Positions 4,168 to 27,618 of a stretch of 32,554 nt of DNA are shown one piece after another. The stretch is from Spirochaetota bacterium. Its GTDB lineage: Bacteria; Spirochaetota; GWE2-31-10; JAFGQB01. The stretch lies in assembly GCA_016935915.1 (NCBI GenBank), contig JAFGQB010000116.1, positions 1 to 32,554 on the forward strand. The letters run 5' to 3'. Within the stretch, counting starts at the first letter, position 1. Every line of letters begins with the position of its first letter. The translations under genes and the position numbers were made by a program. The notes below the pieces were generated by a model. The model was not told the origin of the DNA and made no database searches. It worked only from the letters and a program-made list of their open reading frames with translations.

Positions 4168-4920
4168 TTATCTGCTTAATCTTTTTAAACTGAACGCATC
4201 ATCGGGTATTTGTACATTCATTTTAATATTTTTCATTTTAAATAATGTTCTTGAATCTTTTCTTAATAGATCCTTTATCTGCATTTCTGTGGCAAAATAT
4301 TTATTGCCTATCCATTCAGCATCAAGCAGAAGAAATTCTTTTAATTTTGCACCTGATAAAGCAAATCTTTCAATTTTCAATGCAGCAAAGGTTTCCTTGT
4401 CAACCCAGATAAGCTCTTTGGGATATGATACTGTTTTCTTTTTTGCGTTGAGTTCCAGAAGCCAAACATCTTTACCTTTGAATTTAGTGTCTGAGTCAAA
4501 TTTTATCTGATCGATAATTTTTGCATTATACTGACTTTCCAGTGTTTCATTTTCAATGGCATCTTCATAAGAAAGATCTGACCCCATCATTGACTCTCTG
4601 AGCATATGACCTGTAATGGGGATGACTTTTTCTGTATCATCGGAATAATAAAACAGATTACCATCTTTCTTCATATATTTTGTCCCAAGATCATCAGGAT
4701 TTGTAAACTCGATATAATAGTTTAATCTTCCCTTTGCATATGATGTAAATGTCTTTATTATTTTTTTCCCCGTTATGAATATTGTCATGTCTCCTTCATA
4801 CTGAATGGCATTGAAAACTTCATTGTTATCAAGTTTTCTGATTATTGTCAATGCATCCTGTGAAAAAGCATTTTGCAGTATAAATAGCGCCCAAAAAAAT
4901 ATCATTGATTTTAATTTCAT
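4168..4920 (-). CDS. LolA-like outer-membrane lipoprotein-sorting protein (periplasmic, signal peptide)
   Basis: 250 aa. Signal peptide MKLKSMIFFWALFILQNAFSQ. The size, the aromatic-rich composition and the position immediately downstream of a MacB/FtsX-type ABC transporter match the 'outer membrane lipoprotein-sorting protein' (LolA-like) family that is usually encoded with such transporters. AAGGAGA RBS. Confidence 0.5.
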   Translation of the reverse strand: MKLKSMIFFWALFILQNAFSQDALTIIRKLDNNEVFNAIQYEGDMTIFITGKKIIKTFTSYAKGRLNYYIEFTNPDDLGTKYMKKDGNLFYYSDDTEKVIPITGHMLRESMMGSDLSYEDAIENETLESQYNAKIIDQIKFDSDTKFKGKDVWLLELNAKKKTVSYPKELIWVDKETFAALKIERFALSGAKLKEFLLLDAEWIGNKYFATEMQIKDLLRKDSRTLFKMKNIKMNVQIPDDAFSLKRLSR

Positions 4921-4941
4921 TCTTTTCTCCTTATTAATTAT

Positions 4942-6627: not shown

Positions 6628-6652
6628 AGTTTCCTCCGATACGGTTTCTTTA

Positions 6653-8419
6653 TCACTCAAATCTTAAAGCATCTACTATGGACATTTTTACTGCTTTTAA
6701 AGCAGGGAAAAAAGCAGTAAATGCGGCAATTATTGTCGCAATAATTGGTGAAGCTATTATTGTGTGAAAATTCCATGCTCCTCTGAAAATACCTACTACT
6801 CTGTAACCGAAATTTTCCATATTAGTTTCTGCAAGTATATTGGTATAGTCGATTCCGTAATAAATGATCCAATAGTCCAATACCAGTCCTAAAATTATTC
6901 CGATAAAGGAACCTATAAAACCTATTAGTCCGGCTTCATATAAGAATAACTTTATTATATCGAAATCCCTCATACCGTTGGCTCTAAGCATTCCTATCTC
7001 TTTGGTTCTTTCAAAAATAGCCATGAGCATTGTATTTGCAATACCCATAATTGCAAGTAAAAATAGTATGCCTATCATGATATTTGTTGTTACTATATCT
7101 CCTGCCGATGCAGCAAGGTAATCTTTTGCAACATCCTGCCAGTTAACCACAGTTAAATTATCAGGAAGTTTATTGCCCAGAATATTTTTAATATATTTTG
7201 CAGTTTCATCCTTGCCCGGCAGGGAGTATTCGCTGAAACCTTTTTTTCTTATGCATATCTCTGTAATTGCTCCTTCAAGCATAATACCTTTATTATCCTG
7301 CAAAATATCCAGCGGTAGATATGCAACATTACCGTTAATGGCTGGATTTGGGGAATTAATAATGCCGGCAACGGTTATATCAATTAATTGATGAATGTGT
7401 TTGATTCTGCCTTTTTCATCCTTTTTATCTATTGTCACAGAGCATCTTACAACATCACCTATTTTTACTTTTAGGTCTTTTGCTCCCCTGACTCCAAGCA
7501 GACAAGCGAAACTTCCATTTTCAATGAAATTGTAATAATCTGCTGATTTTAATGCATCTATAATATTATTCGTATAATCTCTTTCCAAAACCCTTTTTAT
7601 GGATCTGAATTTTAAATTTGCCTTATCAAGCTTTTTTTCATATGACTTAAGCTTATTAATGGAAATAAATTTTTTATAATTGTTTAAAGTATTATTGAAA
7701 TTTTTTATTATATATTTATTTATAAAATCTGGTTTATCATAGTTTTTATCTGTTTTTTTTATCAATCCATTGGTAAGTCCGTTTTCTTTTATATAACTGA
7801 TTTTATTGTTCAATTCTTCAATTTTTAATTTTATGTTTTGTATTTTATCATTCTCATCAGTATTGATGTTTTTATAATAATAAGTATCATTTTTAAAATT
7901 CAATTCATAAGCATTCATCAAATTCTTTTTTAAATTTAAATTGTTGATTTCAGGAAGTATCTTGTTTTCAAATATATATTTTGATAATTTGTAAGGGGGT
8001 TCAGAGTATTTATAGTATTTAAATACTTTTTTTTCCATTTCAGGATCAGCACCTATGAACATAAAAGGAAGTTCTATTTCCGGGCTAAGAAGTGATCCGG
8101 TAAAAACAGCTCTCGGAGCTCCAACATAACCTGCTTCATCAAGAGCTTTTAGGATTTTTTCATAATCATTAAAAGTTTCATACATGGGAAGTTCATCTCT
8201 TTTTTCAAAATATGATTTTGAGTAAATTTTTGAACTTCCGGTTTCATAATTTACAAGATTTCTTTTTGAATCAAGATTCATGCCTAAAAGCCATGAATCC
8301 ATCCAGATATAAATGGAAAGACCGATTGTAATTGCAATGGCTGTAAGTATTGTCTTTACTCTGTGTCTTCCAAGGTTTTTAAAAGCAATTACAAGAAGAT
8401 TTATCTTTTCACCTTTCAT
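6653..8419 (-). CDS. ABC transporter permease, FtsX/MacB-type, with a large periplasmic domain containing a coiled-coil
   Basis: 588 aa. N-terminal TM (ILTAIAITIGLSIYIWM). A ~400-aa periplasmic region contains a heptad coiled-coil (NDKIQNIKLKIEELNNKISYIKENG). C-terminal FtsX module (ILFLLAIMGIANTMLMAIFERTKEIGMLRANGMRDFDIIKLFLYEAGLIGFIGSFIG). AGGAGG RBS. The start overlaps the ATPase stop (ATGA). Confidence 0.8.
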   Translation of the reverse strand: MKGEKINLLVIAFKNLGRHRVKTILTAIAITIGLSIYIWMDSWLLGMNLDSKRNLVNYETGSSKIYSKSYFEKRDELPMYETFNDYEKILKALDEAGYVGAPRAVFTGSLLSPEIELPFMFIGADPEMEKKVFKYYKYSEPPYKLSKYIFENKILPEINNLNLKKNLMNAYELNFKNDTYYYKNINTDENDKIQNIKLKIEELNNKISYIKENGLTNGLIKKTDKNYDKPDFINKYIIKNFNNTLNNYKKFISINKLKSYEKKLDKANLKFRSIKRVLERDYTNNIIDALKSADYYNFIENGSFACLLGVRGAKDLKVKIGDVVRCSVTIDKKDEKGRIKHIHQLIDITVAGIINSPNPAINGNVAYLPLDILQDNKGIMLEGAITEICIRKKGFSEYSLPGKDETAKYIKNILGNKLPDNLTVVNWQDVAKDYLAASAGDIVTTNIMIGILFLLAIMGIANTMLMAIFERTKEIGMLRANGMRDFDIIKLFLYEAGLIGFIGSFIGIILGLVLDYWIIYYGIDYTNILAETNMENFGYRVVGIFRGAWNFHTIIASPIIATIIAAFTAFFPALKAVKMSIVDALRFE

Positions 8420-9102
8420 TTTTTTACATCCTCCTGGATTTTACCATCTCTTAATTTTATTATTCGATTTGCAAAATCCATGACCAGCTTATCGTGAGTT
8501 GAAAATAAAAAGGTTACTTTTTTATCCTGATTTAACTTTTTCATTATTTCAAGAACTTCCGTTGCGGTTATAGAGTCCAGATTTGCCGTAGGTTCATCGG
8601 CAAGGATCAGTTTTGGCGCTTTGATCAGCGCTCTGGCTATTGCAACTCTCTGCTGCTGACCTCCTGACATTTCTGTCGGTCTTCTTTTTTCCATGCTTTC
8701 AAGCCCTACAACTTTTAGAGATTCATAGGATTTTTCTTTTATTTCTTCACTGTTATAACCTAAAAGCGTTAAAGGGAAAGCTACGTTTTCAAATGCAGTC
8801 AAAACAGGTATCAGGTTATATGCCTGAAAAATAAATCCCATTTTTTCTCTTCTAAGGTAAGCAAGTTCATCTTTTTTCATATTCCCAACAGATGTATTAT
8901 CAAATAATACTTCTCCGCTTGTCGGTGTATCCAGACAGCCTATAAGGTGCAGAAGTGTTGACTTACCGCTTCCTGAAGGTCCTACAATTGCGGTAAACTC
9001 GCTTTCATTTATTGTCATATCAATGCCTCTTAGAGCATTTACAGTGATTTTTTTTATCTGATAATCCTTAATCAGTTTTTTTGTTTCAACTATTTTACTC
9101 AT
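8416..9102 (-). CDS. ABC transporter ATP-binding protein (MacB/LolD-type ATPase)
   Basis: Walker A GPSGSGKST, Q-loop, ABC signature MSGGQQQRVAIARAL and Walker B LILADEPTANLD are all present. The start is set at MSKIVETKKL (9102) because AGGAGG lies 5 nt upstream; the ORF-track start at 9126 lacks an RBS. Confidence 0.9.
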   Translation of the reverse strand: MSKIVETKKLIKDYQIKKITVNALRGIDMTINESEFTAIVGPSGSGKSTLLHLIGCLDTPTSGEVLFDNTSVGNMKKDELAYLRREKMGFIFQAYNLIPVLTAFENVAFPLTLLGYNSEEIKEKSYESLKVVGLESMEKRRPTEMSGGQQQRVAIARALIKAPKLILADEPTANLDSITATEVLEIMKKLNQDKKVTFLFSTHDKLVMDFANRIIKLRDGKIQEDVKK

Positions 9103-9160
9103 TTTATCCTCCTGTAATATTTGCATGCATGGAACAGCCGTGCATGTTCCTTACAATTGT

Positions 9161-10249
9161 TTATTTTTTATTTTTTTTACTCTTCTTAACCTCTGATAAA
9201 GCCTGAATACCTGCAAAGTTGCCGAGGTTCATATTGTCAAGTATAGTTGCAGGGACCATCATTGTCGAGTTGCCTGCCTTTAAACCTTCAAATAATATGT
9301 TCATGCTCCTTAATTTTAAGGCGGTATCATTATTTTTATATATTTTTGCCGCTTCTTCGAATTTTTTGGCAAGTTCTATTTCCGATTCTCCAAGCACTAT
9401 TCTTGACTCTTTTTCTCTTTCTGCCTGTGCTTTTTTGCTCATTGTGTCCTGAAGGTGCTGAGGAATGATAATTTCCGTAATGTCAATAGATTGTATGGTT
9501 ATACCCCACTCATTTGTTCTTTTATCAACGATTTTTCTGATCTCTTCTTCGGCTTCCTCTCTTTTTTCCAGAAGTTTTGTCAAGGTTGTTTTCCCGATTG
9601 CATCTCTAAGCGCAGCCTGAGAGCTCAAAACAACGGCATCTGTATAATTTTCAACTTCCAAAATAGCTTTTTCAGGATCCCATATCATCCAGAAAGCCAG
9701 AGCATCTACTGTGACTGCAACAGAATCCTTGGTAAGGGTTGTTTCTGCCACAAAATCAGTTGCACGTATTCTTAAGTCTACTATTTTATTCACAATATCA
9801 GTGAACGGCAATATTAAGAACAAACCAGGACCTTTTATCTTGTTGAATTTCCCGAATCTCAAGATCACTGCTCTTTCCCATTCTTTGGTCTGCTGGAATA
9901 TCGGTGCTAAAAAAACTCCGAAAGATACAGGAACAATGAAATAAAATGAATTGAAACCCTTCCACCAGAAAAAAGCCAATACTCCGATAAAATTTATTTT
10001 TACAATCATTTCCCATTTACCGATCATAATACCCAAAATTCCAAATATAGGGAATAATAGAAAAATTACAAACTCTTCACTGTTCGTTATTCTTTCGCAA
10101 TAATAGAAATATAATATAAATCCAATTGTACTGAAAAAAAGAAATATGAAAGAATTGATCGGATTTATACTGAAATCCTTTTCAAAGAAACTTTTTTTAC
10201 TGATATTCTTTATTAAATAATCTTTTTTTTCCTTAAAAAAATCAAACAT
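9161..10249 (-). CDS. SPFH/Band-7 (stomatin/YqiK-like) protein with an unusual ~110-aa polytopic N-terminal membrane region (about 4 predicted TM helices)
   Basis: 362 aa. Four hydrophobic segments (SFIFLFFSTIGFILYFYY, FVIFLLFPIFGILGIMIG, INFIGVLAFFWW, FYFIVPVSFGVFLAPIF) precede a canonical SPFH core (ERAVILRFGKF...GPGLFLILPF...DLRIRATDF...TKDSVAVTVDALAFW...) and a C-terminal coiled-coil. GGAGGA RBS. The start lies 4 nt after the GntR stop, so the two are co-transcribed. Confidence 0.8.
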   Translation of the reverse strand: MFDFFKEKKDYLIKNISKKSFFEKDFSINPINSFIFLFFSTIGFILYFYYCERITNSEEFVIFLLFPIFGILGIMIGKWEMIVKINFIGVLAFFWWKGFNSFYFIVPVSFGVFLAPIFQQTKEWERAVILRFGKFNKIKGPGLFLILPFTDIVNKIVDLRIRATDFVAETTLTKDSVAVTVDALAFWMIWDPEKAILEVENYTDAVVLSSQAALRDAIGKTTLTKLLEKREEAEEEIRKIVDKRTNEWGITIQSIDITEIIIPQHLQDTMSKKAQAEREKESRIVLGESEIELAKKFEEAAKIYKNNDTALKLRSMNILFEGLKAGNSTMMVPATILDNMNLGNFAGIQALSEVKKSKKNKK

Positions 10250-10252
10250 ATA

Positions 10253-10630
10253 TTATTCCTCCATAAAATTAAAATTTTTAAGTATTCTGATGCAATCTTC
10301 TTTATTAAATCCAATTTCATTCATTTGAATTAAGAATTGTGCGCTGATCTTTTCTGCTTTCTGTATTTTTTCAATAGAACTAATATCGATTTTTTTTTCC
10401 GATATAAAAGTGCCGTATCCTACTTGAGTATTTACAAATCCCCTTATTTCAAGTTCATTATATGCCTTGGCTACTGTATTTGGATTTATTTTTAGGTCCA
10501 CAGCTAATTGTCTTACAGTAGGTAGTTTTTGTCCTGGTTTAAATTTTCCTATGCTCATATTATATTCTACCCATTGAATTATCTGTCTATACACCGGTAT
10601 TCCGCTTTTTGTATCAATCGTTAAAATCAT
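10253..10630 (-). CDS. GntR-family transcriptional regulator, YtrA subfamily (short, wHTH only)
   Basis: 125 aa. GntR wHTH: IPVYRQIIQWVEYNMSIGKFKPGQKLPTVRQLAVDLKINPNTVAKAYNELEIRGFVNTQVGYGTFI. A ~50-aa C-terminal tail with no effector domain is the YtrA subfamily hallmark. It is the first gene of an ABC-transporter operon, as with B. subtilis ytrA. Confidence 0.85.
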   Translation of the reverse strand: MILTIDTKSGIPVYRQIIQWVEYNMSIGKFKPGQKLPTVRQLAVDLKINPNTVAKAYNELEIRGFVNTQVGYGTFISEKKIDISSIEKIQKAEKISAQFLIQMNEIGFNKEDCIRILKNFNFMEE

Positions 10631-10828: not shown

Positions 10829-12436
10829 ATGATTGATATTAAAAGAAGAGTACCAAGATTTGACATTAAGTTCGAATTACTCAGTAATTTACTTAATGGC
10901 AAAGGTATAAATATAAGTCAGACAGGCATAGGATTTTTAACAGAGGAAGAAATTATTCCTGCAGATAATATTCCGTTTGAAACTGAAATAAAAGGCTACA
11001 TTTTCAGTGATAAAATTTACAAAATTAAAGGAACAGGAAATTTATTGTATTCGAAAAAACTTATAGGTCAGAATGAATTATACAGGAACGGATTAAAATT
11101 CGTAAATATGGATGATGATTCGAAAGAGGCGTTATTCAATCTTTTAAATGATATCAGACTATTTAAAAGTGATATAAAAGATGAGAATACCATCATGACA
11201 CTTGCCGATTTTTACTATTATCCCTCAGATGATTTATTTGCCAAGACCAGTATTTTCAGTGAATATATTGATAAGAATTTCCTGATAAATCATAAAATGT
11301 TTTCTTATTATCTTGATTCATCATGCAGTGCTGTAGGCAATATGATCAACAGAAAAACAAAAGACAAAAAAGAGATGATAATGTTGGGGTCAAATAATTA
11401 TCTGGGACTTGCGACTCATCCCGAGGTTATAAAAGCAGGCATTGAAGCACTAAAAAAATATGGCGCTGGAAACGGCGCTGGTGCAATGGTTGGAGGAACT
11501 TTAGGCATACATAAACAGCTTGAAGAGGAGCTGGCTGATTTTATCGGAAAAGAAGAGGCAATGATATTTAATTCGGGATATTCTGCCAACATAGGAATAT
11601 TATCAGGAATATTAAGACCTAATGATGTGGTAATTAATGATCAATATAATCATGCGAGTATTTTTGACGGATGTCGTTTGAGTCAGTCAAAATTACTGGT
11701 TTTTAAACATAATGATATTAACAGTCTTGAAAAAATCGTTAAAAGAGCAAAATATTATTTTAACGGATGTATAATAGTTATTGATGGTATTTACAGTACA
11801 GACGGAAGTCTTTCTCCTCTGGATGAAATATACAGGATTGCCAGAACTTATGACTGCAAAATAATGGTCGATGAAGCCCATGCTCTAGGCATATTAGGTA
11901 AAAAAGGAAGGGGAACAACTGAATATTTTAATTTAACAGATAAAATTGATATTATCATGGGAACCTTAAGCAAATCTTTAGGATCTTCAGGAGGATTTGT
12001 AGCATCAAGTAAAAATGTTATAGAATATTTAAGATTTTATGCAAGGTCATATTTATTTTCAACAAGTTTTCCCCCTTCAGTTGCCGCAACTGTTTTAAAA
12101 GCATTGCATCTTATTAAAACTGACAACAGTATAAGAGAAAAACTTCATTTCAATATTAGTTATTTTATTAATGGATTAAAAAAGCTTAATTTGGATATAG
12201 GTGAACCAAAATCGGCAGTTGTACCTATTTTTATTTCTGATCAAAAATTACTTTTTAAGATTTCATCTTTATTATTTGATAATGGATTATTTCATAATGT
12301 CATGATATATCCTGCTGTACCTATGGGCGGATCATTGTTAAGATTCGGAATTACAACATCTTTAGATGAAAATATTTTAAAAAAAGCTCTTGTAATAATA
12401 GAAAAAGTTTTAAAAGAAGTCGGATTTTTAAAGTAA
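10829..12436 (+). CDS. Serine palmitoyltransferase-like alpha-oxoamine synthase (PLP-dependent, class II aminotransferase) with an N-terminal PilZ-like domain
   Basis: 535 aa. The C-terminal ~350 aa are an AONS/Spt core: LGSNNYLGLATHPEVIKAGIEALKKYGAGNGA, DEAHALGILGKKGRGT, and the PLP-lysine block GTLSKSLGSSGGFVASS (compare Sphingomonas Spt GTFSKSLASLGGFVAG). The N-terminal ~110 aa carry both PilZ signature motifs in the canonical order and spacing: RRVPR (RxxxR) at aa 6-10 and NISQTG ([D/N]xSxxG) at aa 28-33. Confidence 0.8.
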   Translation: MIDIKRRVPRFDIKFELLSNLLNGKGINISQTGIGFLTEEEIIPADNIPFETEIKGYIFSDKIYKIKGTGNLLYSKKLIGQNELYRNGLKFVNMDDDSKEALFNLLNDIRLFKSDIKDENTIMTLADFYYYPSDDLFAKTSIFSEYIDKNFLINHKMFSYYLDSSCSAVGNMINRKTKDKKEMIMLGSNNYLGLATHPEVIKAGIEALKKYGAGNGAGAMVGGTLGIHKQLEEELADFIGKEEAMIFNSGYSANIGILSGILRPNDVVINDQYNHASIFDGCRLSQSKLLVFKHNDINSLEKIVKRAKYYFNGCIIVIDGIYSTDGSLSPLDEIYRIARTYDCKIMVDEAHALGILGKKGRGTTEYFNLTDKIDIIMGTLSKSLGSSGGFVASSKNVIEYLRFYARSYLFSTSFPPSVAATVLKALHLIKTDNSIREKLHFNISYFINGLKKLNLDIGEPKSAVVPIFISDQKLLFKISSLLFDNGLFHNVMIYPAVPMGGSLLRFGITTSLDENILKKALVIIEKVLKEVGFLK

Positions 12437-12545: not shown

Positions 12546-13991
12546 ATGGATATTATAGATTTTTTAGAAAAGAATTTATGCCGTTATTCTGACAAGAGAG
12601 CATTGGTTGATGTTGATAATAATATTTGTTTAACTTATAAAAATTTATATGATAATATTTTATATTATGCAGATTATTTAAAAAAAAGCGGCATAAGGGA
12701 AAATCAGAAAGTCGGTTTATACCTTAATAATTCTATCATACATATAATTTTATTATATAGCTTGTTATATTTAAAAGCAGTACCGGTTCTAATTGATTCA
12801 AGAAACACATTAAGGGAAATAAAAGAATGTCTGATAAGTTCAGATACAAAGGTAATAATTTATGAAAATGCTAACTTTGAAATAAATGAATTATACAGTA
12901 CAGCAGATAAGATTTTTGTCATAAAAGAAAGTATAGAAGATTTTAATATCAAAGATAATAAAATAAGCTGTATAATAAAAAATTTCAATAATGATTATAA
13001 TAATAAAAAATTAAAAAAGAGTAAAAAATTAACTTACTTTATACTTTTTACCTATCGAGGAACAGGACAAGTTCTGCCTGTTATACTTTCAGAAAGCGCA
13101 ATAATAAACAGTCTATTCAGTAATTTTTATTTGAATAAAAATATTAAAGATATTATTTTATTGTTGATTTTACCGATTCATCATATTTTTGCATTAACAT
13201 GCAATTTACTTAGCCCTTTATCGCTTGGAGTAACAATAATATTGACCAATAAAATACAGCCTTATAAAATTTTAAATATTATTGAAGAATATAGGATTAC
13301 TTATTTAATATTAGTACCGACTTTAGTTTATGTCCTTTTAAATTCAATAAAAAAAAATAAATATAATCTTATGAGCTTAAGAAACGGAATTGTAGGCGGA
13401 AACAAATTTCAGAATGATCTTTATAAAGATTGGCATGAAGCATTAAATTGTATCCTGCTGCAGGGATACGGCTTGACAGAAACATGTCCTGTAATCTGTA
13501 ATCAATGGAATAACAATAAACCAGGTTCAATCGGGAAATTAATGAAAGGTGTAAAAGCCAGATTAATTGATAAAAATGGTAATTATAATGATAAGGAAGG
13601 TGTTTTATGGATCAAATCTAAAATGATATTATCTAAATATTTAAATAATGAAAAAGAAAATAAAGAATATATTGATAATGGATGGTTTAATACAGGCGAT
13701 ATTATTGCAAAAGATAGTGATGATTTTTATTATTTTATAAAAACAATTAAAAACATTGCAAAAGTAGGAGGATCAACAGTAGATTTAAAAGAAGTTAAAA
13801 CTATTATTCAAAAGTTTAATTTTGTACATTCCTGTTTGTTATCAGTAGAACATGATAAATTATGGAATGATAAGATAATTTGTCATTTAACTTTAAGGGA
13901 AAATATAGATAAAGTTGATATATATAATTATTTTAAATCTGTTTTAGCATCATTTAAACTGCCCGGTAATATTATTATTAATTCAATTTAA
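12546..13991 (+). CDS. ANL-superfamily adenylate-forming enzyme (acyl-ACP synthetase / fatty-acyl-AMP ligase-like), with degenerate motifs
   Basis: 481 aa. Clear ANL motifs are YGLTET (A5, YGxTE) and GWFNTGD (A7, GWxxTGD), with the hinge region IAKVGGSTVDLKEV. However, the P-loop A3 reads TYRGTGQVLPV instead of TSGTTGxPKG (no Lys), and the C-terminus ends ...FKLPGNIIINSI where A10 PKTxSGK is expected (no catalytic Lys). Confidence 0.65.
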   Translation: MDIIDFLEKNLCRYSDKRALVDVDNNICLTYKNLYDNILYYADYLKKSGIRENQKVGLYLNNSIIHIILLYSLLYLKAVPVLIDSRNTLREIKECLISSDTKVIIYENANFEINELYSTADKIFVIKESIEDFNIKDNKISCIIKNFNNDYNNKKLKKSKKLTYFILFTYRGTGQVLPVILSESAIINSLFSNFYLNKNIKDIILLLILPIHHIFALTCNLLSPLSLGVTIILTNKIQPYKILNIIEEYRITYLILVPTLVYVLLNSIKKNKYNLMSLRNGIVGGNKFQNDLYKDWHEALNCILLQGYGLTETCPVICNQWNNNKPGSIGKLMKGVKARLIDKNGNYNDKEGVLWIKSKMILSKYLNNEKENKEYIDNGWFNTGDIIAKDSDDFYYFIKTIKNIAKVGGSTVDLKEVKTIIQKFNFVHSCLLSVEHDKLWNDKIICHLTLRENIDKVDIYNYFKSVLASFKLPGNIIINSI

Positions 13992-14238: not shown

Positions 14239-15573
14239 ATGAGATTATCAAAAAATTTTAAAAAAAAATTTGATGATATTTTTTTATATAATGTTTATCC
14301 AGCCGGTAAATTTTTGAAAGATATAATAAAGAACGGATGGAAATCAGGGGTTTTATCAATAAAAGAATATAATATAATCGTTCAATTTTCTGACTTATAT
14401 AATAAAATGTCAGCTGTAAATAAAAAGCCTGTATTAATCTATAATGATTTTATCAAATTTGAAGATTCTTTTTATAAAGTTATCAGCAATGATATTTATC
14501 TTAAAAATTTATTGGAAGGATTAAATAAAATATTTACATATTATAAGGAAAGTTTTTTTAATAATAATGAAAAAATAATTAAACAGCTTATAAATTTATT
14601 AGAATCTTTTTTTAGTTTCAATTTTATAATGCCTTCAATCTATGATATTATTTTAGCTTTTAATATTATTAATGCCAGAAGATTTTTAAACTGGGATGAA
14701 CTTTATGAAAAAACAAAAGAAGATTTTATACAATCAAATTTTTTTGACTGTTCGGTTGAAGTATTTGAACAAATTGTAAAATCTATTAAAAGTTCATTGT
14801 CAGAAATTGAAATTATTGAAAAGGATATTGCCAGGATAGAATGGCTTAAAAATTATTCATCATTATCAAATAACACTAACCCTGATAAAATAATTTGTTT
14901 TTATATAGAGATTTTAAAAAAAGATTGGCATAAAGATTCAGATGATCTTTTTCTTTTATTATTGTCGTTATTTAACGGAATAATTGAAAAGATGAATGAA
15001 CTATTAAGTAAAGATTTTGTATTGATGAATGAAAAAGAAGAGTTGATTAAGAAAAGGATTTTCAGTAATATGGAACTTGAAGAGCTTTTTAATAATTTGA
15101 AAGAACAATATACATCTGCAAAAGACAGGCACTTATCAGTTACTCCTTCTAAAATACCGTTAGAATTTTATATAAGTCAGATAAATCCGGAATTTATATT
15201 TACTGATATAAATCAGAAATTTATTTTTGAAAAGATATATAATGTATTTTATTTTTTAAGACAAATGGCATTTAAATTATATTATATCATAAATGATGAA
15301 AAAGAACTTAATAAAATGAATTTTATTAAATTTATGATTGTTAAACCTGAAGAATGGAAAGGTAAAATATTAATATCTTTAATTAATTTTTATATTGAAC
15401 TTTTTTTACAGATATGCGGATATTTTAAAGAAAAAAATTTAATATTAGAATTAAATAAATTAAATAAATTGATTTTGGATAGAGATAAATCTTTAAAAAA
15501 AATTGAAATGATTTCAGACAGTAATAAAATTATTGAAAGATTTTTAAAAAATGATAAAATAATTTTATTATGA
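14239..15573 (+). CDS. Hypothetical protein (444 aa, predicted all-alpha, no recognisable motifs), translationally coupled to the downstream receiver-domain gene
   Basis: Long ORF in an otherwise densely coding region. It is Lys/Ile/Phe/Glu-rich. Its stop overlaps the next gene's start (ATGA at 15570-15573). No catalytic or binding motif was recognised by eye. Confidence 0.5.
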   Translation: MRLSKNFKKKFDDIFLYNVYPAGKFLKDIIKNGWKSGVLSIKEYNIIVQFSDLYNKMSAVNKKPVLIYNDFIKFEDSFYKVISNDIYLKNLLEGLNKIFTYYKESFFNNNEKIIKQLINLLESFFSFNFIMPSIYDIILAFNIINARRFLNWDELYEKTKEDFIQSNFFDCSVEVFEQIVKSIKSSLSEIEIIEKDIARIEWLKNYSSLSNNTNPDKIICFYIEILKKDWHKDSDDLFLLLLSLFNGIIEKMNELLSKDFVLMNEKEELIKKRIFSNMELEELFNNLKEQYTSAKDRHLSVTPSKIPLEFYISQINPEFIFTDINQKFIFEKIYNVFYFLRQMAFKLYYIINDEKELNKMNFIKFMIVKPEEWKGKILISLINFYIELFLQICGYFKEKNLILELNKLNKLILDRDKSLKKIEMISDSNKIIERFLKNDKIILL

Positions 15574-16055
15574 TAGAAAATAAAGAAAATAATGGATTCA
15601 GCAAAAATAATGAAGTTATTGATGATGCAGTAGTTGCTCAGGAAGAAAATCTAGAAGAAGTTAAAGATGATAATTTAAAATTTGCAGGAAAAATTGTTTT
15701 AGTTGTTGATGATATATTATATGTGGTAAAGTCAATATCAAAAATTTTAAGGGATGAAGGCTTTTTTGTTTTAACTGCACAAACGGGTCTTGACGCTATT
15801 AAAAAAGTTGAGCAATATTCGCCTGATTTAGTTACAATAGATCAGAAACTTCCTGATATGATGGGTACAAAATTAGTGGAAGAAATAAGAAAAATAGAGA
15901 CAGGAAAAAAGACAAAGATTATATTTATATCTGCACTTTATGATAAAGATAAAATAAAATCGATACTTCATCTTGGTGTTGATAATTATTTATTAAAACC
16001 TTTTAAGAAATCTGTTCTGGTAAATACAATTAAAAAGATTTTTAATGAAGAATAA
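15570..16055 (+). CDS. Single-domain response regulator (CheY-like receiver) with a ~40-aa acidic N-terminal extension
   Basis: Receiver signatures: KIVLVVDD (acidic pocket), phospho-acceptor Asp in LVTIDQKLPDM, T/S in IFISA, and the conserved Lys in LLKPF. There is no output domain. Confidence 0.8.
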   Translation: MIENKENNGFSKNNEVIDDAVVAQEENLEEVKDDNLKFAGKIVLVVDDILYVVKSISKILRDEGFFVLTAQTGLDAIKKVEQYSPDLVTIDQKLPDMMGTKLVEEIRKIETGKKTKIIFISALYDKDKIKSILHLGVDNYLLKPFKKSVLVNTIKKIFNEE

Positions 16056-16058
16056 TAA

Positions 16059-17210
16059 TCAATTTTTAAATGGATGTCTGTATTTTAATTTAGTTTTTGG
16101 TAATACTAAATTTTTAAAGATTTTTAAGAAAAAATGAATTATTTTATTATTATGAAATAAATAAATATAATTTGAAATAATGACGCCGCCTAATTTTATT
16201 TTAAATTCATAAGTTGTAACTCCAAGCTCAAGGTTTTTAAATTTATTTTCAATGGCAAATTTCAATCCCTGGTAAAATATATTGAAATAAATGTTATATT
16301 TTTCTTTTTTTTTATAGTCCATGCCAACATATAATAATCTAGCAGTGAAATCATCAAGAACAATAAATGCAAATCCCAGAATATGATTGTTTTTTTTTAA
16401 CAACAAAACCAATGATTTTTTATATAGATATTTGTTCATACTTTTGAAAAAATTTTCAGTTAAAATTTCTCTTCTGTATTCTTTGGCATGCTCATAGCAA
16501 TTTAAGTATAATTTTAATAATTCTGGAATTATTTCGGAATAATTATAGCAATATTCTATTTTTAAATTACTTTGATTTATAATGTTATTGCATTTTTTAA
16601 CAAATCTTCTGTAATTATAACGCAAATCATTTATATAATCATTAAAATTCTTCCATTTTATTTTTATTTCTACATTAGGCATGTTACTTGCCTCTATAAA
16701 TTTAAAACTTTTTATTTCATTGGATATTTTATAATCTTTTTTATAAAAGTCTCTGATCGCCAATAAGTTTGCATTGTTTTCTTTTGCTATTTTTTTCATT
16801 TCATTTATAATCAATTCAATGATTTTTAATCTGCTGTATTCTTTTTGAGTATTTATTGCAAAAGTATTGCCCAGAGATATGGGAGAACCGCATTCGGTTA
16901 ATTTTATAATACAAAAATTCGGGATAATCTTTCTAGTGAATTTTATGATTTTCAGGAAAAATCCTTTTAAGAAAATAAATAAATCTACACTTATTGTATA
17001 AACGCATGCATGTCCAACAATTTGATTTGCATTGTTATAAACCACGAGATAATAAAATTTACAGTCATTGATTTTGCTTTCTTCAACAGCTTTTAAAAAA
17101 TCAAATTTATTTATTATATTATCGCTTTCTACTATTGAATCCCAGCTCTTTTTATCTATTTCATTGATATTTTTAAAAATTTTTATTTGATACATAAAAA
17201 AATATTCCAA
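16059..17210 (-). CDS. GNAT-fold acyltransferase of the BioF2-like / FemAB-like (DUF482-type) family
   Basis: 383 aa. The N-terminal signature KSWDSIVES...FDFLKAVEESKINDCKFYYLVVY matches the characteristic W...F(L)..FL.A.EES... opening of PF04339/PF13480 proteins. The size (~380 aa) and the presence of two GNAT-like halves are consistent with that family. Confidence 0.5.
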   Translation of the reverse strand: MEYFFMYQIKIFKNINEIDKKSWDSIVESDNIINKFDFLKAVEESKINDCKFYYLVVYNNANQIVGHACVYTISVDLFIFLKGFFLKIIKFTRKIIPNFCIIKLTECGSPISLGNTFAINTQKEYSRLKIIELIINEMKKIAKENNANLLAIRDFYKKDYKISNEIKSFKFIEASNMPNVEIKIKWKNFNDYINDLRYNYRRFVKKCNNIINQSNLKIEYCYNYSEIIPELLKLYLNCYEHAKEYRREILTENFFKSMNKYLYKKSLVLLLKKNNHILGFAFIVLDDFTARLLYVGMDYKKKEKYNIYFNIFYQGLKFAIENKFKNLELGVTTYEFKIKLGGVIISNYIYLFHNNKIIHFFLKIFKNLVLPKTKLKYRHPFKN

Positions 17211-17447: not shown

Positions 17448-17681
17448 ATGATTAAAAAAGAAGTTATTGATATAATAAGTACCGTTACAAGAATTGATAA
17501 GGAAAAGATAAAAGATAATTCTTCTTTGAGAGATGATCTTTTTGTTGATTCACTTCAGGCTGTTCAAATTGTAAATCTGATTCAGGATAAATATAATATA
17601 AAAATCGATGAAATAGAAATATTTAATGTTGATAATCTTACAGATATTGTTGCTATAGTTAATGAATATTTAGAGAAATAA
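17448..17681 (+). CDS. Acyl carrier protein
   Basis: 77 aa with the phosphopantetheine attachment motif LRDDLFVDSLQAVQIV (DSL serine), acidic helix II and ACP-typical length. Confidence 0.85.
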   Translation: MIKKEVIDIISTVTRIDKEKIKDNSSLRDDLFVDSLQAVQIVNLIQDKYNIKIDEIEIFNVDNLTDIVAIVNEYLEK

Positions 17682-19559: not shown

Positions 19560-22061
19560 ATGCAAAAAAATGAGAATAAGATTTCTATAAAAAGTTCAAT
19601 GAAATTCAATGAATTTGAAGCTAAAAAACAGGAATTAAATTGCGGCGTCAATATTATTCCTGTTATTAGGTTTTTAGAAAAAAATTTCGGGATGAATAAA
19701 ACAATAAATATTGTTGAATCTCTCGGATTGCCTTTAAGTTTTTTATCTAATAAGCGAAATTGGGTATCGTATAGCTATTATTCTTCATTGCTTGACAAGC
19801 TGGTAGAGGTAACAGAAGATAAAAGAGCTCCTTTTAAGATTGCCTCTGTTTTACGTCCTGAGTCAATTTTCGATGATATAATGTATGCAGGATATGCTTC
19901 AATATTTTTCAGTAATCCTAAAATTATGTATAAGTCAATAATCAGTAAAAATATATATAAGACTTATCAGAAAATCGGGGATTTTAATCTTTTAAATGAA
20001 ACAAAGAATTCTATTTCATTTGAATATATTTTAAAGAATAACTATAAACATAAAAATAATAATTGTATTGCTATTGAGGGGTATTTATCATTTGGAGCCT
20101 TAATATGCGGGTATCCGCCTGCCTCTACTTCCTATCAGATAACTTCGGACAACAGATGTATATTCACTGTATCATGGGAAAAGAAGTCCAAATTATTTGA
20201 AATTGTTTTTTTTACATTATTTTCAATAGTTTTTGTTTCAGAAATTCTTCTATATAAGAAAATATTTTTGTTAAAAGATATAATGTTAAGCACCTTTATT
20301 TTTTTTGCAATATATTTTTTTGTAAAAAACATGCAATTTAAGAAAAAAATCACTCATGAAGAAATTTTTAATTTTGACCGAAATAATTCAATTTTAAATG
20401 CATTATCGAAGATTGAAAAGGATTATAATGATTTACTTGAAAAAGAAATAAAAATAATGGAAAGAAATACATATTTGACTATTATGAGTGAGGCTAGGAA
20501 ATTGATTTATTATGCATTATACTTCACTCCTGTTCTTTTTAATATTACAAAACTGCTACTGGATAATTTAAATTTCGTTAAATGCGTATATTTTGAATTC
20601 AGTTTGAAAAAAAGGTCTTATGAATACCTGTTTGATTTAAATAATGAAAAAATAGTAACAGAGGATATAAAAGCTGTAAGTTTTATTAATTTTATTATGT
20701 CCGGTGAAATAATTGAATATATTCAAAAAAGTAATAATTATATGAATATTGAAACCAATGATTTAAAAAAATATATTATAGATAAACCGATAAATTTTAA
20801 TTTAGATTTATTCAATAAATATTACGCTAATATTCTGTTCATAGATATGCCTTCAACATACAGCGGCTTTTTTTTATTTTTTTCCTTAAAAAAAAGCAAT
20901 TTCAGCCGAGAAATCATAAAGATGTTATTTGAAGATATTTCTGATCAGTTAAAAATTTGTTATGAAAATATTTCAACAAGGTACACTATTGAAAATATTT
21001 TATCTAGCATACCAAGTTATGTAATTATTTTCAATACTGAAGATTATACGATAAAATTTATTAATAATTTATTTTTAACATCATTCCCGTTGATAGAGAA
21101 AAAGATAGATAAGCTTGATGTAATCGGCAAGAAATTATTTACTGTTTTACATTTTAATCAGGATGTCATTGATAATATTCAAAATTATATAAATGAAATT
21201 ACTATTAATAATATTGAGGATTTAAAATCTGAAGTTTATGAAACCATGATTAATAATTTTGTTTTTGAATACAGTTTATTCAGAATACCCAGATTTAAAA
21301 ACCAGGAAAAATTATTAGGGCTAATAATGAATGATATTACTGAAGCAAAATATTTTCAGAAAAATATTATTGTAAATGAGAAATTATTGGCATTAGGTAA
21401 GGTCGCTAGCGGCATAGCACATGAAATAAATAATCCACTTTATGCTGTTTTAGCCAGTGCAGAAGAAATATCAGAAAATGAAAGCATAGACAATGAGACA
21501 AGAGATTATGCGGAAGAAATAATTAATCATGTTATTAGTGTTTCAAATATTATTAAAGATTTATCTTCATTTTCAAAGACTTTAAGAAAAGAAGAAACTT
21601 ATGAAGTTGATCTTAATAATGTTATAGAGGAGTCATTAAAATTGGTTAAATACAGCTCGAATTATCTTGAAATAAATATCATTAAAAATTTAGGTGAAAT
21701 ACCTTTAATTAAAACGACTAAAGGTGAGATGCAGCAGGTATTTATTAATATATTTAATAATGCAGTACAGGCAATGAATGGAAGAGGTACGTTAAATGTT
21801 GAGACAAAAAATAAAAGCAATAGGATTATAATTGTAATTAAAGATACGGGATCAGGGATATCAAAAGAGAATTTACCTTTTATTTTTGATTTGTATTTTA
21901 CTACAAAAAATCTTGAAGAAGGTTCTGGTCAGGGATTACATATTGTTAAAAAAATAATTACAAAATACAATGGGGATATAAAAGTCACAAGTAAAATCGG
22001 TAAAGGCTCGGTTTTTCATATAACATTTTATTTGGATAGAATGGGAGTATTTAATGAATAA
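19560..22061 (+). CDS. Sensor histidine kinase with an unrecognised ~200-aa N-terminal cytoplasmic domain, two TM helices and a C-terminal HisKA + HATPase_c
   Basis: 833 aa. H-box LALGKVASGIAHEINNPLYAV. N-box FINIFNNAVQAM. G1 IKDTGSGIS. G2 GSGQGLHIVKKII. TM pair around aa 210-260 (IVFFTLFSIVFVSEILLY / LSTFIFFAIYFFV). The N-terminal 200 aa match no domain recognised by eye. Confidence 0.85.
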   Translation: MQKNENKISIKSSMKFNEFEAKKQELNCGVNIIPVIRFLEKNFGMNKTINIVESLGLPLSFLSNKRNWVSYSYYSSLLDKLVEVTEDKRAPFKIASVLRPESIFDDIMYAGYASIFFSNPKIMYKSIISKNIYKTYQKIGDFNLLNETKNSISFEYILKNNYKHKNNNCIAIEGYLSFGALICGYPPASTSYQITSDNRCIFTVSWEKKSKLFEIVFFTLFSIVFVSEILLYKKIFLLKDIMLSTFIFFAIYFFVKNMQFKKKITHEEIFNFDRNNSILNALSKIEKDYNDLLEKEIKIMERNTYLTIMSEARKLIYYALYFTPVLFNITKLLLDNLNFVKCVYFEFSLKKRSYEYLFDLNNEKIVTEDIKAVSFINFIMSGEIIEYIQKSNNYMNIETNDLKKYIIDKPINFNLDLFNKYYANILFIDMPSTYSGFFLFFSLKKSNFSREIIKMLFEDISDQLKICYENISTRYTIENILSSIPSYVIIFNTEDYTIKFINNLFLTSFPLIEKKIDKLDVIGKKLFTVLHFNQDVIDNIQNYINEITINNIEDLKSEVYETMINNFVFEYSLFRIPRFKNQEKLLGLIMNDITEAKYFQKNIIVNEKLLALGKVASGIAHEINNPLYAVLASAEEISENESIDNETRDYAEEIINHVISVSNIIKDLSSFSKTLRKEETYEVDLNNVIEESLKLVKYSSNYLEINIIKNLGEIPLIKTTKGEMQQVFINIFNNAVQAMNGRGTLNVETKNKSNRIIIVIKDTGSGISKENLPFIFDLYFTTKNLEEGSGQGLHIVKKIITKYNGDIKVTSKIGKGSVFHITFYLDRMGVFNE

Positions 22062-22425
22062 TTTATTTAAAAGTATATTGGTCATTGATGATGATCAGTT
22101 AATATTAAAAAGTATAAAAAAACAGCTTAAAGATGAGAATTTTGATGTTGATTTTATTGATGATCCTTTGGAAGGGATGAAAATGATCGACAATAAAAAA
22201 TATGATTTGATATTAAGCGATATTAAGATGAAGCCAATCTTGGGAATAGAAGTACTTGAAAAGGTTAAAAAAAGATATCCTCATTTGCCTATAATAATAA
22301 TAACCGGATATGTTGATGATAAACTAATGAAAAAAGCTAAGGAATTAGGCTGCAATGATTATTTAATTAAACCAATTAGAAAGAATGATCTTATTAATTC
22401 TTTAAATAATATTTTAAATAATTAG
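22054..22425 (+). CDS. Single-domain response regulator (CheY-like), translationally coupled to the kinase
   Basis: 123 aa. ILVIDDD, phospho-acceptor Asp in LILSDIKM, T in IIIITG, K in YLIKP. The start overlaps the kinase stop by 8 nt. Confidence 0.85.
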   Translation: MNNLFKSILVIDDDQLILKSIKKQLKDENFDVDFIDDPLEGMKMIDNKKYDLILSDIKMKPILGIEVLEKVKKRYPHLPIIIITGYVDDKLMKKAKELGCNDYLIKPIRKNDLINSLNNILNN

Positions 22426-22488: not shown

Positions 22489-23274
22489 TTATTTCAGTAA
22501 TTCATCTAATTCAATAGCTTTATATTTTTTGAATTTCCAGAGAAATTTAAAGCTTATTGCATTTTCTGGGCAATATATCATACATCTCTGGCACAGCTGA
22601 CATTTATCAAGATATATTGGGTAATCATTCATAATTATATTTTGAACAGGGCAAAGATTTATACAAATACCGCACTTTGTACATCTGTTTTTATCGATTT
22701 TATATCTTTTACCTAATTCATTAGATTTTTTTAATAAAAAGGAAGAAGATGATACTTTATGAAGCATATAAGGTAATAATGGTATATTAATCCATTTTGA
22801 TTTATTATTTATTAATTCATAGGTATATTTTTCGGCTTTTTTTAAACCTTTTGCAATTTTAATTTTATTTTTTTTGACATTTATTTTTTGCGGATAAAGA
22901 TTGTTCGGCATAATAATTTCTTTTGCACCAATAGTATTATAACCTTTGTTTTTAAATATTTGTTTTAAAGGGCCTACAATACCACCTGAAAATAAATGCA
23001 GAGTATCAACCATAAAAATTATTGTTTTTTTCCTTGTTGCAGGCATCTTATATATAAAATCCCATATAAATTTATATGTTGATTGAAAAGCAACAGGGAA
23101 AGCTAAACCAATTGTGTTTTTTAAATTTATTTTTTCTGGATTAGATTTTTCAATTTTATAAAGATTGGTTTTAAAATTATTTGCATTAAAGCAATCCTTC
23201 ATTTTATCCACAATTAATTTTGTATTGCCTGTACCGGAAAAGTAATAAATATCAATATTTGTCATCTTATACAT
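22489..23274 (-). CDS. EFR1-family ferredoxin (flavodoxin-like domain + 2x[4Fe-4S] ferredoxin domain)
   Basis: The N-terminus IYYFSGTGNTKLIV is a flavodoxin-like FMN-site motif. The C-terminus has two CxxCxxCxxxCP clusters: CTKCGICINLCP and CQLCQRCMIYCP. Confidence 0.75.
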   Translation of the reverse strand: MYKMTNIDIYYFSGTGNTKLIVDKMKDCFNANNFKTNLYKIEKSNPEKINLKNTIGLAFPVAFQSTYKFIWDFIYKMPATRKKTIIFMVDTLHLFSGGIVGPLKQIFKNKGYNTIGAKEIIMPNNLYPQKINVKKNKIKIAKGLKKAEKYTYELINNKSKWINIPLLPYMLHKVSSSSFLLKKSNELGKRYKIDKNRCTKCGICINLCPVQNIIMNDYPIYLDKCQLCQRCMIYCPENAISFKFLWKFKKYKAIELDELLK

Positions 23275-23294
23275 AAATATAATAAATCATTATA

Positions 23295-23618
23295 TTAAAT
23301 TTTAAATCTATCTGTTTTAGCATTTATGATTTTTTTAATAAAAATTATTTGTTCTGGATTTATATCGTTAAATTTTACCCCAGTTTTAAAATTTTTTGAA
23401 TTCATAACTTCACAATTTAATATTATTTCTTCAGAATTTAATATAATTTTTAATTGAATTATTTCATTATTTTGGAAATTATGATTTGTATTTAAACCAG
23501 CTCCATCTAAATTTATATCAATTACATAACATTGTTCCCAATTTTCATGATAAAAATATGATCCCTCAATATTTATAAGAAATCTAGGTTTTTTACGTTG
23601 TGCTTCTGTAAATGACAT
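23295..23618 (-). CDS. Stand-alone PilZ-domain protein (putative c-di-GMP receptor)
   Basis: 107 aa. RKKPR (RxxxR) at aa 8-12 and DINLDGAG (D/N-x-[S/N]-x-x-G-like) about 22 aa downstream. The N-terminal pattern QRKKPRFLINIE parallels KRRVPRFDIKFE in the PilZ-like domain of the Spt-like protein at 10829. The third motif position is N rather than the canonical S. Confidence 0.45.
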   Translation of the reverse strand: MSFTEAQRKKPRFLINIEGSYFYHENWEQCYVIDINLDGAGLNTNHNFQNNEIIQLKIILNSEEIILNCEVMNSKNFKTGVKFNDINPEQIIFIKKIINAKTDRFKI

Positions 23619-24226: not shown

Positions 24227-24238
24227 TATTTTTTACTA

Positions 24239-26503: not shown

Positions 26504-26724
26504 TTTTATAATTTTATAATTTAAATTAGATTTTAATTATTTGAATATATTATAATAATTAAAAAATGTCCATAATATTAATAATTATATAATTTGTAAA
26601 ATTTAATTTTAATCAAAATGAATTTGATATTTAATCTTTATTATGATTATATAAATATATAAGGTAAATGTGGTTTGTATTAGATATTTATAAATCAAGT
26701 TGTTTATCATAGGAGATATTGAAT

Positions 26725-27618
26725 ATGATAAAGAGTAGTAATTCTTTAAGAAGGAAGTTTTTATTAATAATATTTTTATATATCATTGTTTTTTTTATTG
26801 CAGTAACAGTTATGTTTTTTTTATCTCAAAAATCAAATCTTAATTCTTTTATAATTTTTATTATTTATATATTTATTCTTAATGTATCACTAGTTGCAGT
26901 AATTTATTTATTCATTTCGATACATATATTAAAACCTATTAAACATTTAATAAATGATGTTAAAAATATTACAGATCAGGATGATTTTTCTATTAAATTG
27001 GATGTCAATAGAAAAGATGAAATAGGTGAATTGAAATATGAATTCAGCTCAATCTTAAAACAGCTTGATTTTTCAAGGAAAAAGTTTTCAGGTGCATTAT
27101 CAGAATTGTCTGAAATTGATTGGCTGACAAATGTTGGAAATAAACAGGGATTTGATAAGAAAATAATTGAGGAATTAAACAGGGCATCAAGACTCAGGAT
27201 ACCTTTTTCTTTAATGTTGATAGATATTGATAATTTTAAATATTTTATTGATAAGTACGGGCTGCAAAAAGGTGATCAATGCTTGATTTTTATTTCCAAA
27301 GCAATAAGAGAAACCTTTAAAAGGGCAGGGGATTATATTGCCAGATATGGTGGAGAAAAATTTGCTGTTATTTTGCCTAATACTGATACAAAAGGTGCAT
27401 TAATTGTTGCTGAGAAATTACAGAGGAAAGTATATGAGTTGAATTTGTCCGGTGAAACTTTGACTGTTTCTGAAAGAATAACCATAAGCATTGGAGTAAG
27501 TTCAACAATTTCAAAAATTAATTCCAGCCAGAAAGAATTAATACAAAATGCTGAAGAAGCACTTATGGATGCTAAAAATGATGGAAAAAACAGGATACGT
27601 TTAGTTAAAATTGATTGA
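26725..27618 (+). CDS. Membrane-anchored GGDEF-domain protein with a degenerate active site (GGEKF) and an intact RxxD I-site
   Basis: Two N-terminal TM helices. GGDEF-domain blocks: DWLTNVGNKQGFD, FSLMLIDIDNFKYFIDKYG, KRAGDYIARYGGEKFAVILPNTD (RAGD I-site exactly 5 aa before GGEKF, the same spacing as PleD RESD...GGEEF), and SIGVSS. Start placed at the ATG at 26725 (AGGAGA 8 nt upstream) rather than the TTG at 26719. Confidence 0.8.
   Translation: MIKSSNSLRRKFLLIIFLYIIVFFIAVTVMFFLSQKSNLNSFIIFIIYIFILNVSLVAVIYLFISIHILKPIKHLINDVKNITDQDDFSIKLDVNRKDEIGELKYEFSSILKQLDFSRKKFSGALSELSEIDWLTNVGNKQGFDKKIIEELNRASRLRIPFSLMLIDIDNFKYFIDKYGLQKGDQCLIFISKAIRETFKRAGDYIARYGGEKFAVILPNTDTKGALIVAEKLQRKVYELNLSGETLTVSERITISIGVSSTISKINSSQKELIQNAEEALMDAKNDGKNRIRLVKID

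Follow-up and report, generated by a model that had tools for sequence, protein, structure and literature searches.

A PilZ domain joined to an alpha-oxoamine synthase at the head of a conserved gene cluster in uncultured Spirochaetota

Contig JAFGQB010000116.1 of a Spirochaetota bacterium (GTDB lineage Bacteria; Spirochaetota; GWE2-31-10; JAFGQB01; GenBank assembly GCA_016935915.1) was analyzed computationally over its positions 1 to 32,554, and this whole 32,554-nucleotide stretch is referred to below as the window. One of its genes, on the forward strand at 10829..12436, encodes a 535-amino-acid protein in which about 115 N-terminal residues precede an otherwise complete alpha-oxoamine synthase (AOS), an enzyme dependent on pyridoxal phosphate (PLP). 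The sequence motifs, predicted fold, and family conservation of the N-terminal region support its identification as a genuine PilZ domain, the receptor type for the second messenger cyclic di-GMP (c-di-GMP). We propose, with moderate confidence, that c-di-GMP acts as an allosteric gate on the first committed step in the synthesis of an N-acylated long-chain aminoketone, that is, a ceramide-like lipid or lipid signal.

Translation of the DNA bore out the open reading frame and its strand as they had been given in a preliminary description of the window. Its ATG is the first start after the upstream stop, and the 5' DNA (ATG ATT GAT ATT AAA AGA AGA GTA CCA AGA TTT) encodes MIDIKRRVPRF. The start codon is well supported, because the homologues of this protein (PilZ-AOS, hereafter) all share an N-terminus of the form M-I/L-D-I-K/R-R. 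The protein is identical to NCBI MBN2545476.1, from a Spirochaetota metagenome-assembled genome (MAG), in which the database label names only an aminotransferase class I/II-fold PLP enzyme.

The two PilZ signatures reported earlier, RRVPR (residues 6–10) and then NISQTG (residues 28–33), are both present in the DNA (Table 1). RxxxR directly precedes the first strand, and [D/N]hSxxG falls within the ~17–25 residues downstream that are typical of PilZ. In a 44-sequence family alignment, R6, R10, and G33 show no variation and at least 90% of the sequences retain S30, and a motif scan of relatives found RxxxR followed by [D/N/E]x[S/T]xxG at constant spacing in 61 sequences. Because R6 and R10 do not vary and the second motif keeps its distance across ~60 relatives, the occurrence of both motifs is, at the sequence level, more than chance. 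The Pfam PilZ model (PF07238) matches residues 18–106 with 19.6 bits in the whole protein and 22.3 bits when residues 1–180 are searched alone (E = 1.7e-4), relative to a gathering score of 22.5 bits. Thus, when the two Pfam families named in the preliminary description were searched for, the synthase was clear (Aminotran_1_2, PF00155; E = 7e-48, residues 182–473), but PilZ came out just under its cut-off. Full-length homologues with 36–41% identity clear that cut-off by a wide margin (P0038, 45.5 bits; P0061, 44.2; P0031, 40.1), and a further one, P0128, also exceeds it (23.9).

An AlphaFold2 model of residues 1–180, computed from the family alignment, has six strands (residues 11–94) followed by a long helix (96–117), with block-averaged confidence (pLDDT) of ~76–94 across residues 11–110. 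This matches the canonical PilZ layout of a six-stranded beta-barrel plus a C-terminal helix (10.1101/814665), and the modeled fold of the N-domain is PilZ, as the preliminary description had anticipated. The linker between the PilZ helix and the AOS domain (residues ~113–124) is short and of low confidence in the model. The full-length AlphaFold2 model has a pLDDT of 83.6 and a predicted template modeling score (pTM) of 0.76. It had also been raised that the N-terminal region might be a leader common to serine palmitoyltransferases (Spt). The alignments indicate that it is not, because solved Spt, KBL, and BioF chains align to the 535-residue protein only from about residue 179, and the closest relatives that lack PilZ (415–440 residues) begin at about residue 120. 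A phmmer search with residues 1–180 against 1.84 billion cluster representatives matched 16 proteins, and the spirochaete-type domain is therefore rare and divergent. Stand-alone PilZ proteins of 106–115 residues, with 37–53% identity to the N-domain, also exist, but the stand-alone PilZ protein of the window does not belong with them.

The divergence of the spirochaete-type domain, evident from its sub-threshold Pfam score, would also suit a different role, in which a PilZ-folded N-domain is not a c-di-GMP switch but a module for protein–protein contact or membrane localization, or a receptor for another ligand, with the enzyme regulated by other means. Non-binding PilZ domains are known, and the C-terminal helix is recognized as a protein-interaction surface (10.1101/814665). 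However, non-binders typically lose RxxxR and/or [D/N]xSxxG, whereas both are kept here in ~60 sequences from distant lineages, including paralogues in which the enzyme itself appears dead (see below), and the motif lies at a free N-terminus, as it does in stand-alone binders. We thus regard a PilZ domain that is no c-di-GMP switch as improbable.

The remainder of the protein has the complete signature of an AOS: a PLP lysine within GT(L/F)SK(S/A), the stacking histidine, the Asp and His of D-E/D-A-H, and the C-terminal Arg. The Spt-type lysine block singled out in the preliminary description, GTLSKSLGSSGGFVASS, is indeed present, and its lysine is K382 (nt 11972–11974). The catalytic set H275, D348, H351, T379, S381, K382, and R505 is invariant across the PilZ-AOS family alignment and aligns with the catalytic residues of Sphingobacterium multivorum Spt and Thermus BioF/KBL. 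A sequence search of the Protein Data Bank (PDB) returned at least 50 solved AOS sequences (E = 1e-84 to 1e-41), the top relative being S. multivorum Spt (3a2b, 288 bits), with Thermus BioF/KBL at 267 bits and Coxiella KBL at 255. The weakest AOS matches were CAI-1 synthase structures (144 bits).

Which amino acid the enzyme uses is another matter. The NCBIfam Spt models score 380.8 bits (CFB-type; cut-off 640), 348.8 (beta-proteobacterial; cut-off 500), and 283.8 (alpha-proteobacterial; cut-off 670), the BioF/Kbl-related, KBL, and BioF models score 372, 370, and 362 bits, all under their own cut-offs, and the CqsA/LqsA-type model PRK07179 scores 244 bits (cut-off 428). Because no Spt, KBL, or BioF model reaches its cut-off, sequence alone does not assign the amino-acid substrate. 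The specificity loop (YPAVP here; SPAVP in S. multivorum Spt, FPTVP in Thermus BioF/KBL, YPVVP in Coxiella KBL) does not discriminate among substrates either. The earlier description of an "unambiguous" Spt/AONS enzyme therefore stands as far as a complete AOS is concerned, but a strict Spt assignment was overstated, at 381 bits against a cut-off of 640 and with BioF/KBL close behind. The same closeness (362–372 bits) might suggest an ordinary housekeeping BioF or KBL of biotin or threonine metabolism with an incidental N-terminal extension, and JGI auto-annotation does name homologues glycine C-acetyltransferase or 8-amino-7-oxononanoate synthase. Set against this are the failure of every such model to reach its cut-off, the lack of bio or tdh genes nearby, conserved neighbors that are instead a long-chain acyl ligase, an acyl carrier protein (ACP), and an acyltransferase, and an extension that is a folded, conserved PilZ domain. 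A housekeeping role is, in our view, very improbable indeed.

The neighborhood of PilZ-AOS supports a long-chain lipid pathway, to the extent that gene content can. A conserved cluster headed by PilZ-AOS is present in three other Spirochaetota loci (L001, L003, and L007). It comprises PilZ-AOS, an AMP-binding ligase, usually a 440–510-residue protein without an assigned family, a receiver-only regulator, a FemAB_like protein on the opposite strand, an ACP, a B12 radical-SAM enzyme, a histidine kinase of ~820 residues, a second receiver, and an EFR1-type ferredoxin, and every conserved part is found in the window (Table 1). Three elements of an Spt pathway context (ACP, AMP-binding ligase, and GNAT-fold acyltransferase) are thus present and conserved between loci. 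The ligase gene lies directly 3' of PilZ-AOS in all five of the spirochaete-type loci read (L090 left out), the ACP is at the equivalent position in L001, L003, and L007, and the ferredoxin is at the equivalent position in L003 and L007. The ferredoxin is likely the electron donor for the radical-SAM enzyme. The window radical-SAM enzyme is encoded on the opposite strand, is only 29% identical, over the core only, to the 438-residue radical-SAM protein that follows the ACP in L007, and looks like a non-orthologous replacement in an otherwise syntenic cluster. The 444-residue protein has 30–39% identity to neighbors in L001, L003, L090, and L091; L007 lacks it. Searches of Pfam, NCBIfam, and PDB gave no match to this protein. 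A PDB sequence search with the FemAB-like protein likewise returned no match. There is no convincing terminator between the AOS and ligase genes, although promoter and terminator scans are uninformative at ~25% GC, and an Rfam scan of the window gave no match, hence no c-di-GMP riboswitch.

Table 1. Coordinates of PilZ-AOS, its motifs and domains, and other features of the window
Feature	Position	Strand	Basis or remarks
PilZ-AOS fusion gene	10829..12436	+	535 aa; Pfam and homologues
PilZ domain, aa ~5-117 (six beta-strands, 11-94; C-terminal helix, 96-117)	10841..11179	+	
RxxxR motif R6-R-V-P-R10, predicted c-di-GMP-binding	10844..10858	+	DNA read; family conservation
[D/N]hSxxG motif N28-I-S-Q-T-G33	10910..10927	+	DNA AAT ATA AGT CAG ACA GGC; conservation
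Alpha-oxoamine synthase domain, aa ~125-535	11201..12433	+	Pfam, NCBIfam, PDB alignments
AMP-binding fatty-acid-activating enzyme (acyl-CoA/ACP ligase type)	12546..13991	+	Pfam, NCBIfam, loci comparison
Conserved protein, 444 aa, no assigned family	14239..15573	+	Beside PilZ-AOS in four other loci
Receiver-only response regulator	15570..16055	+	
FemAB_like (PF04339, COG3146) GNAT-fold acyltransferase	16059..17210	-	Joined to PilZ-AOS in P0126
Acyl carrier protein, 77 aa, DSL phosphopantetheine site	17448..17681	+	Missed by the 60-aa open reading frame list
B12-binding radical-SAM enzyme, PhpK-like class B, 554 aa	17728..19392	-	195 bits, PhpK-like
Membrane histidine kinase, 833 aa	19560..22061	+	Orthologous across the cluster
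Receiver-only response regulator, second	22054..22425	+	
EFR1-family ferredoxin	22489..23274	-	142.5 bits; cut-off 75
Stand-alone PilZ protein, 107 aa (peripheral)	23295..23618	-	PilZ, 49.6 bits
HAMP-GGDEF protein (peripheral)	26719..27618	+	GGEKF for GG(D/E)EF; RxxD I-site RAGD intact

Upstream of PilZ-AOS in the window is a divergent minus-strand run (4168–10630) with a GntR regulator, an SPFH/Band-7 protein, an ABC ATPase, two FtsX/MacB-type permeases, and a LolA-like protein. The theme of this run is envelope lipid or lipoprotein export. The other loci do not share it in the region upstream of PilZ-AOS.

PilZ-AOS is not a one-off. It belongs to a family found in Spirochaetota and in Thermodesulfobacteriota/Deltaproteobacteria, with ~25 full-length relatives at 50–63% identity from Spirochaetota MAGs and metagenomes and ~30 remoter relatives (36–41% identity) that align end to end with the 535-residue protein. 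Fusions within the family are informative about partners. In P0126 (1027 residues, locus L091), PilZ-AOS is continuous with a FemAB_like domain: residues 551–919 are 32% identical to the FemAB-like protein of the window (E = 1e-53), P0126 matches PF04339 and PF13480, ~100 extra C-terminal residues (~920–1027) have no Pfam match, and the ligase gene again follows. Because of this fusion, we consider the FemAB_like acyltransferase to be a functional partner of PilZ-AOS. The Thermodesulfobacteriota/Deltaproteobacteria relatives are PilZ-AOS-GNAT proteins (Acetyltransf_1; 917–929 residues), and because the window FemAB-like protein has no detectable similarity to the GNAT domain of P0038, the FemAB_like and GNAT fusions are independent. 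P0113 (537 residues), from the AOS neighborhood of PilZ-AOS, is an ACP (PF00550)-AOS fusion, an architecture consistent with acyl-ACP substrates in this branch.

The extent of the family was also explored by other routes. A profile search of genome contigs with the family alignment recovered generic AOS genes at ~40% identity (from Acidobacteriota, Bacteroides, Prevotella, and others), and among the best 80 loci none was confirmed with a PilZ region (the L045 match starts at residue 49). A word-indexed search with the N-terminus of the delta-type proteins returned three fragments only. The nearest relatives without PilZ adjoin lipid A genes (LpxC, LpxI, LpxK, and lipid A acyltransferases) in SASP-encoding Firmicutes. 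A neighbor-joining tree of AOS domains suggests two or three separate PilZ-AOS lineages but is too rough to separate a single from multiple fusion origins. The architecture sits unnoticed in databases, because public pipelines had already flagged PF07238 and PF00155 together in some homologues.

Kinases are a persistent feature of these loci. The window histidine kinase is 45% identical over 822 residues to that of L007, and in the delta-type loci L004 and L006 (two of two genomes), the genes immediately after PilZ-AOS, which has or lacks a fused GNAT domain, encode a GAF histidine kinase and a hybrid kinase. An HpnA-like NAD-dependent epimerase/reductase (335 bits; cut-off 368) is encoded two genes upstream in L004 and L006, with chorismate synthase also upstream. 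The L006 protein is the one without a fused GNAT domain, and directly upstream of it there is instead a 615-residue protein without an assigned family. It is tempting to compare such loci with cqsA-cqsS and lqsA-lqsR-lqsS, well-established arrangements in which the AOS-family enzymes CqsA and LqsA are encoded beside sensor kinases and response regulators. PilZ-AOS could be a signal synthase of this type, making a lipid-derived alpha-aminoketone or alpha-hydroxyketone (possibly N-acylated) that is sensed by the adjacent kinase and receivers, with c-di-GMP gating the output. The kinase and receiver-only regulators conserved beside PilZ-AOS in Spirochaetota fit this reading, as does the kinase adjacency kept in two phyla, although adjacency alone is no proof of cognate sensing and the kinases could merely regulate the operon. 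The sequence similarity to CqsA/LqsA is much weaker, however, both by model (244 bits versus 381 for Spt-CFB) and by structure, given the bottom rank of the CAI-1 synthases. Moreover, CqsA and LqsA have no PilZ domain and neither have nor require a dedicated ACP, ligase, or GNAT partner. Overall, we regard a signal synthase of this type as a serious rival reading, but an unlikely one. Given the conserved kinase adjacency, membrane lipid and lipid signal stand open beside each other as readings of the product.

Two PilZ-AOS paralogues, P0128 (L090:86-1687) and P0135, have glutamate in place of the PLP lysine (SLSETFG and SLNETFG), and their HASI and DEAH motifs are degraded, yet RxxxR and NISLKG persist in both. 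The two have the look of pseudo-enzymes that have lost catalysis but still sense a ligand, and they recall the LCB1 subunit of heterodimeric Spt in eukaryotes. That dead paralogues should keep the PilZ motifs is an argument for selection on ligand binding itself. A bolder form of our proposal, which we advance only tentatively, combines direct c-di-GMP gating of a PLP-dependent AOS with a lipid signal as product and with these paralogues as regulatory subunits.

In the mechanism that we favor, the AOS half would condense an amino acid (serine being the leading, unproven candidate) with a long-chain acyl thioester that the co-operonic acyl-AMP ligase and ACP would supply. This would yield a sphingoid-base-like long-chain alpha-amino ketone, and the FemAB-like or GNAT acyltransferase would then acylate its amine. 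The chain would probably be modified by the B12 radical-SAM enzyme, fed by the EFR1 ferredoxin, and the pathway would end in a ceramide-like lipid. Control would be exerted at the first committed step: c-di-GMP bound at R6/R10 and N28/S30/G33 would shift the PilZ barrel and C-terminal helix against the AOS dimer, turning the step either on or off, by analogy with the PilZ control of BcsA and Alg44. The C-terminal helix is the usual protein-interaction surface of PilZ domains (10.1101/814665). Bacterial ceramide synthesis is a three-enzyme pathway for which the order Spt, bCerS, CerR has been proposed (PMC11087976), and the suggested order of AOS and then acylation parallels it.

Several observations weigh against this mechanism and should be stated together. 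The 535-residue protein falls short of every NCBIfam Spt equivalog cut-off, its KBL/BioF scores are less than 20 bits below that of the top Spt model, and its own PilZ score is marginally under the gathering threshold. Different loci carry radical-SAM enzymes that are not orthologs, and a CerR-type epimerase/reductase was not found within the window. No characterized function was found in the literature for FemAB_like COG3146/DUF482, and FemABX-type enzymes can transfer aminoacyl instead of fatty acyl groups. Lastly, the strong, conserved association with histidine kinases is no less compatible with a signal molecule than with a bulk membrane lipid.

The preliminary description also drew attention to two other proteins in the window that could relate to c-di-GMP (Table 1). 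A second PilZ protein does exist, on the minus strand, with the generic motif in common (RKKPR and DINLDG, with Asn for Ser), but the close kinship to the N-domain that had been implied did not hold up. There is no significant similarity between the two (BLASTP E = 0.5), and paralogy was rejected on these grounds. This stand-alone PilZ protein is not conserved at the equivalent position in L003 or L007. It is encoded in a minus-strand run (including 23618–25390, 23295–23618, and 22489–23274) with an Fe-type alcohol dehydrogenase, a 202-residue protein without an assigned family, and the EFR1 ferredoxin, and its start overlaps the stop of the 202-residue open reading frame. At the P0014 locus, a stand-alone PilZ gene occurs ~5 kb upstream of PilZ-AOS. 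The degenerate, I-site-only GGDEF protein was found as described, with RAGD five residues upstream of GGEKF. It probably lacks cyclase activity and might serve as a receptor for c-di-GMP.

Known PilZ outputs are mostly exopolysaccharide synthases, flagellar brakes, chemotaxis components, and transcription factors. Functionally, PilZ-AOS resembles the PilZ-gated biosynthetic machines BcsA and Alg44, but its PilZ domain is N-terminal rather than C-terminal or on a separate subunit, and the partner is a soluble PLP-dependent enzyme that forms C–C bonds rather than a membrane glycosyltransferase or polysaccharide co-polymerase. With Spt (S. multivorum 3a2b, the best relative, and Sphingomonas paucimobilis 2jg2) it has catalytic residues in common; to our knowledge, described Spts lack a PilZ domain. 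The ACP, acyl-activating enzyme, and N-acyltransferase of the Caulobacter Spt/ACP/ACP-synthetase/bCerS/CerR pathway have parallels in the window, but the CerR-type reductase does not, and the FemAB_like/GNAT acyltransferase is likened to bCerS by its putative role only. Relative to that bacterial ceramide pathway, the radical-SAM, ferredoxin, and two-component genes are extra. The Mycobacterium BioF2-type GNAT(FemAB-like)-AOS fusions, in which an AOS is joined to a FemAB-like/Acetyltransf_6 domain and the function is not known, have AOS and FemAB-like domains as in P0126, but in another order and with no PilZ. Full-text literature searches, whose matches were unrelated papers or authors named Pilz, gave no description of the PilZ-AOS architecture, nor of a PilZ link to sphingolipid or AOS enzymes, in line with the novelty suggested at the outset, and a survey of PilZ domain architectures lists no PLP-enzyme or lipid-synthesis partner (10.1101/814665). 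We therefore classify PilZ-AOS as a putative PilZ-regulated enzyme of a new output class, not as something categorically new.

If our proposal is correct, this would be the first c-di-GMP control of lipid or sphingoid-base-type synthesis through a receptor built into the committing enzyme, and the reach of c-di-GMP would extend to envelope-lipid or lipid-signal chemistry. It would also offer a testable handle on how bacteria regulate sphingolipid-like synthesis, a topic on which the literature found was silent. In the bolder form, the adjacent conserved kinase would sense the product as a lipid signal. Cells would then turn intracellular c-di-GMP into a lipid message outside the cell or in the envelope, and the Lys-to-Glu PilZ paralogues would have the part of regulatory partner in a heterodimer, as LCB1 has in the Spt of eukaryotes. 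The conserved cluster itself, with its ligase, ACP, FemAB-like acyltransferase, radical-SAM enzyme, 444-residue protein, and two-component system, defines an uncharacterized pathway in uncultured Spirochaetota and in lineages related to sulfate reducers.

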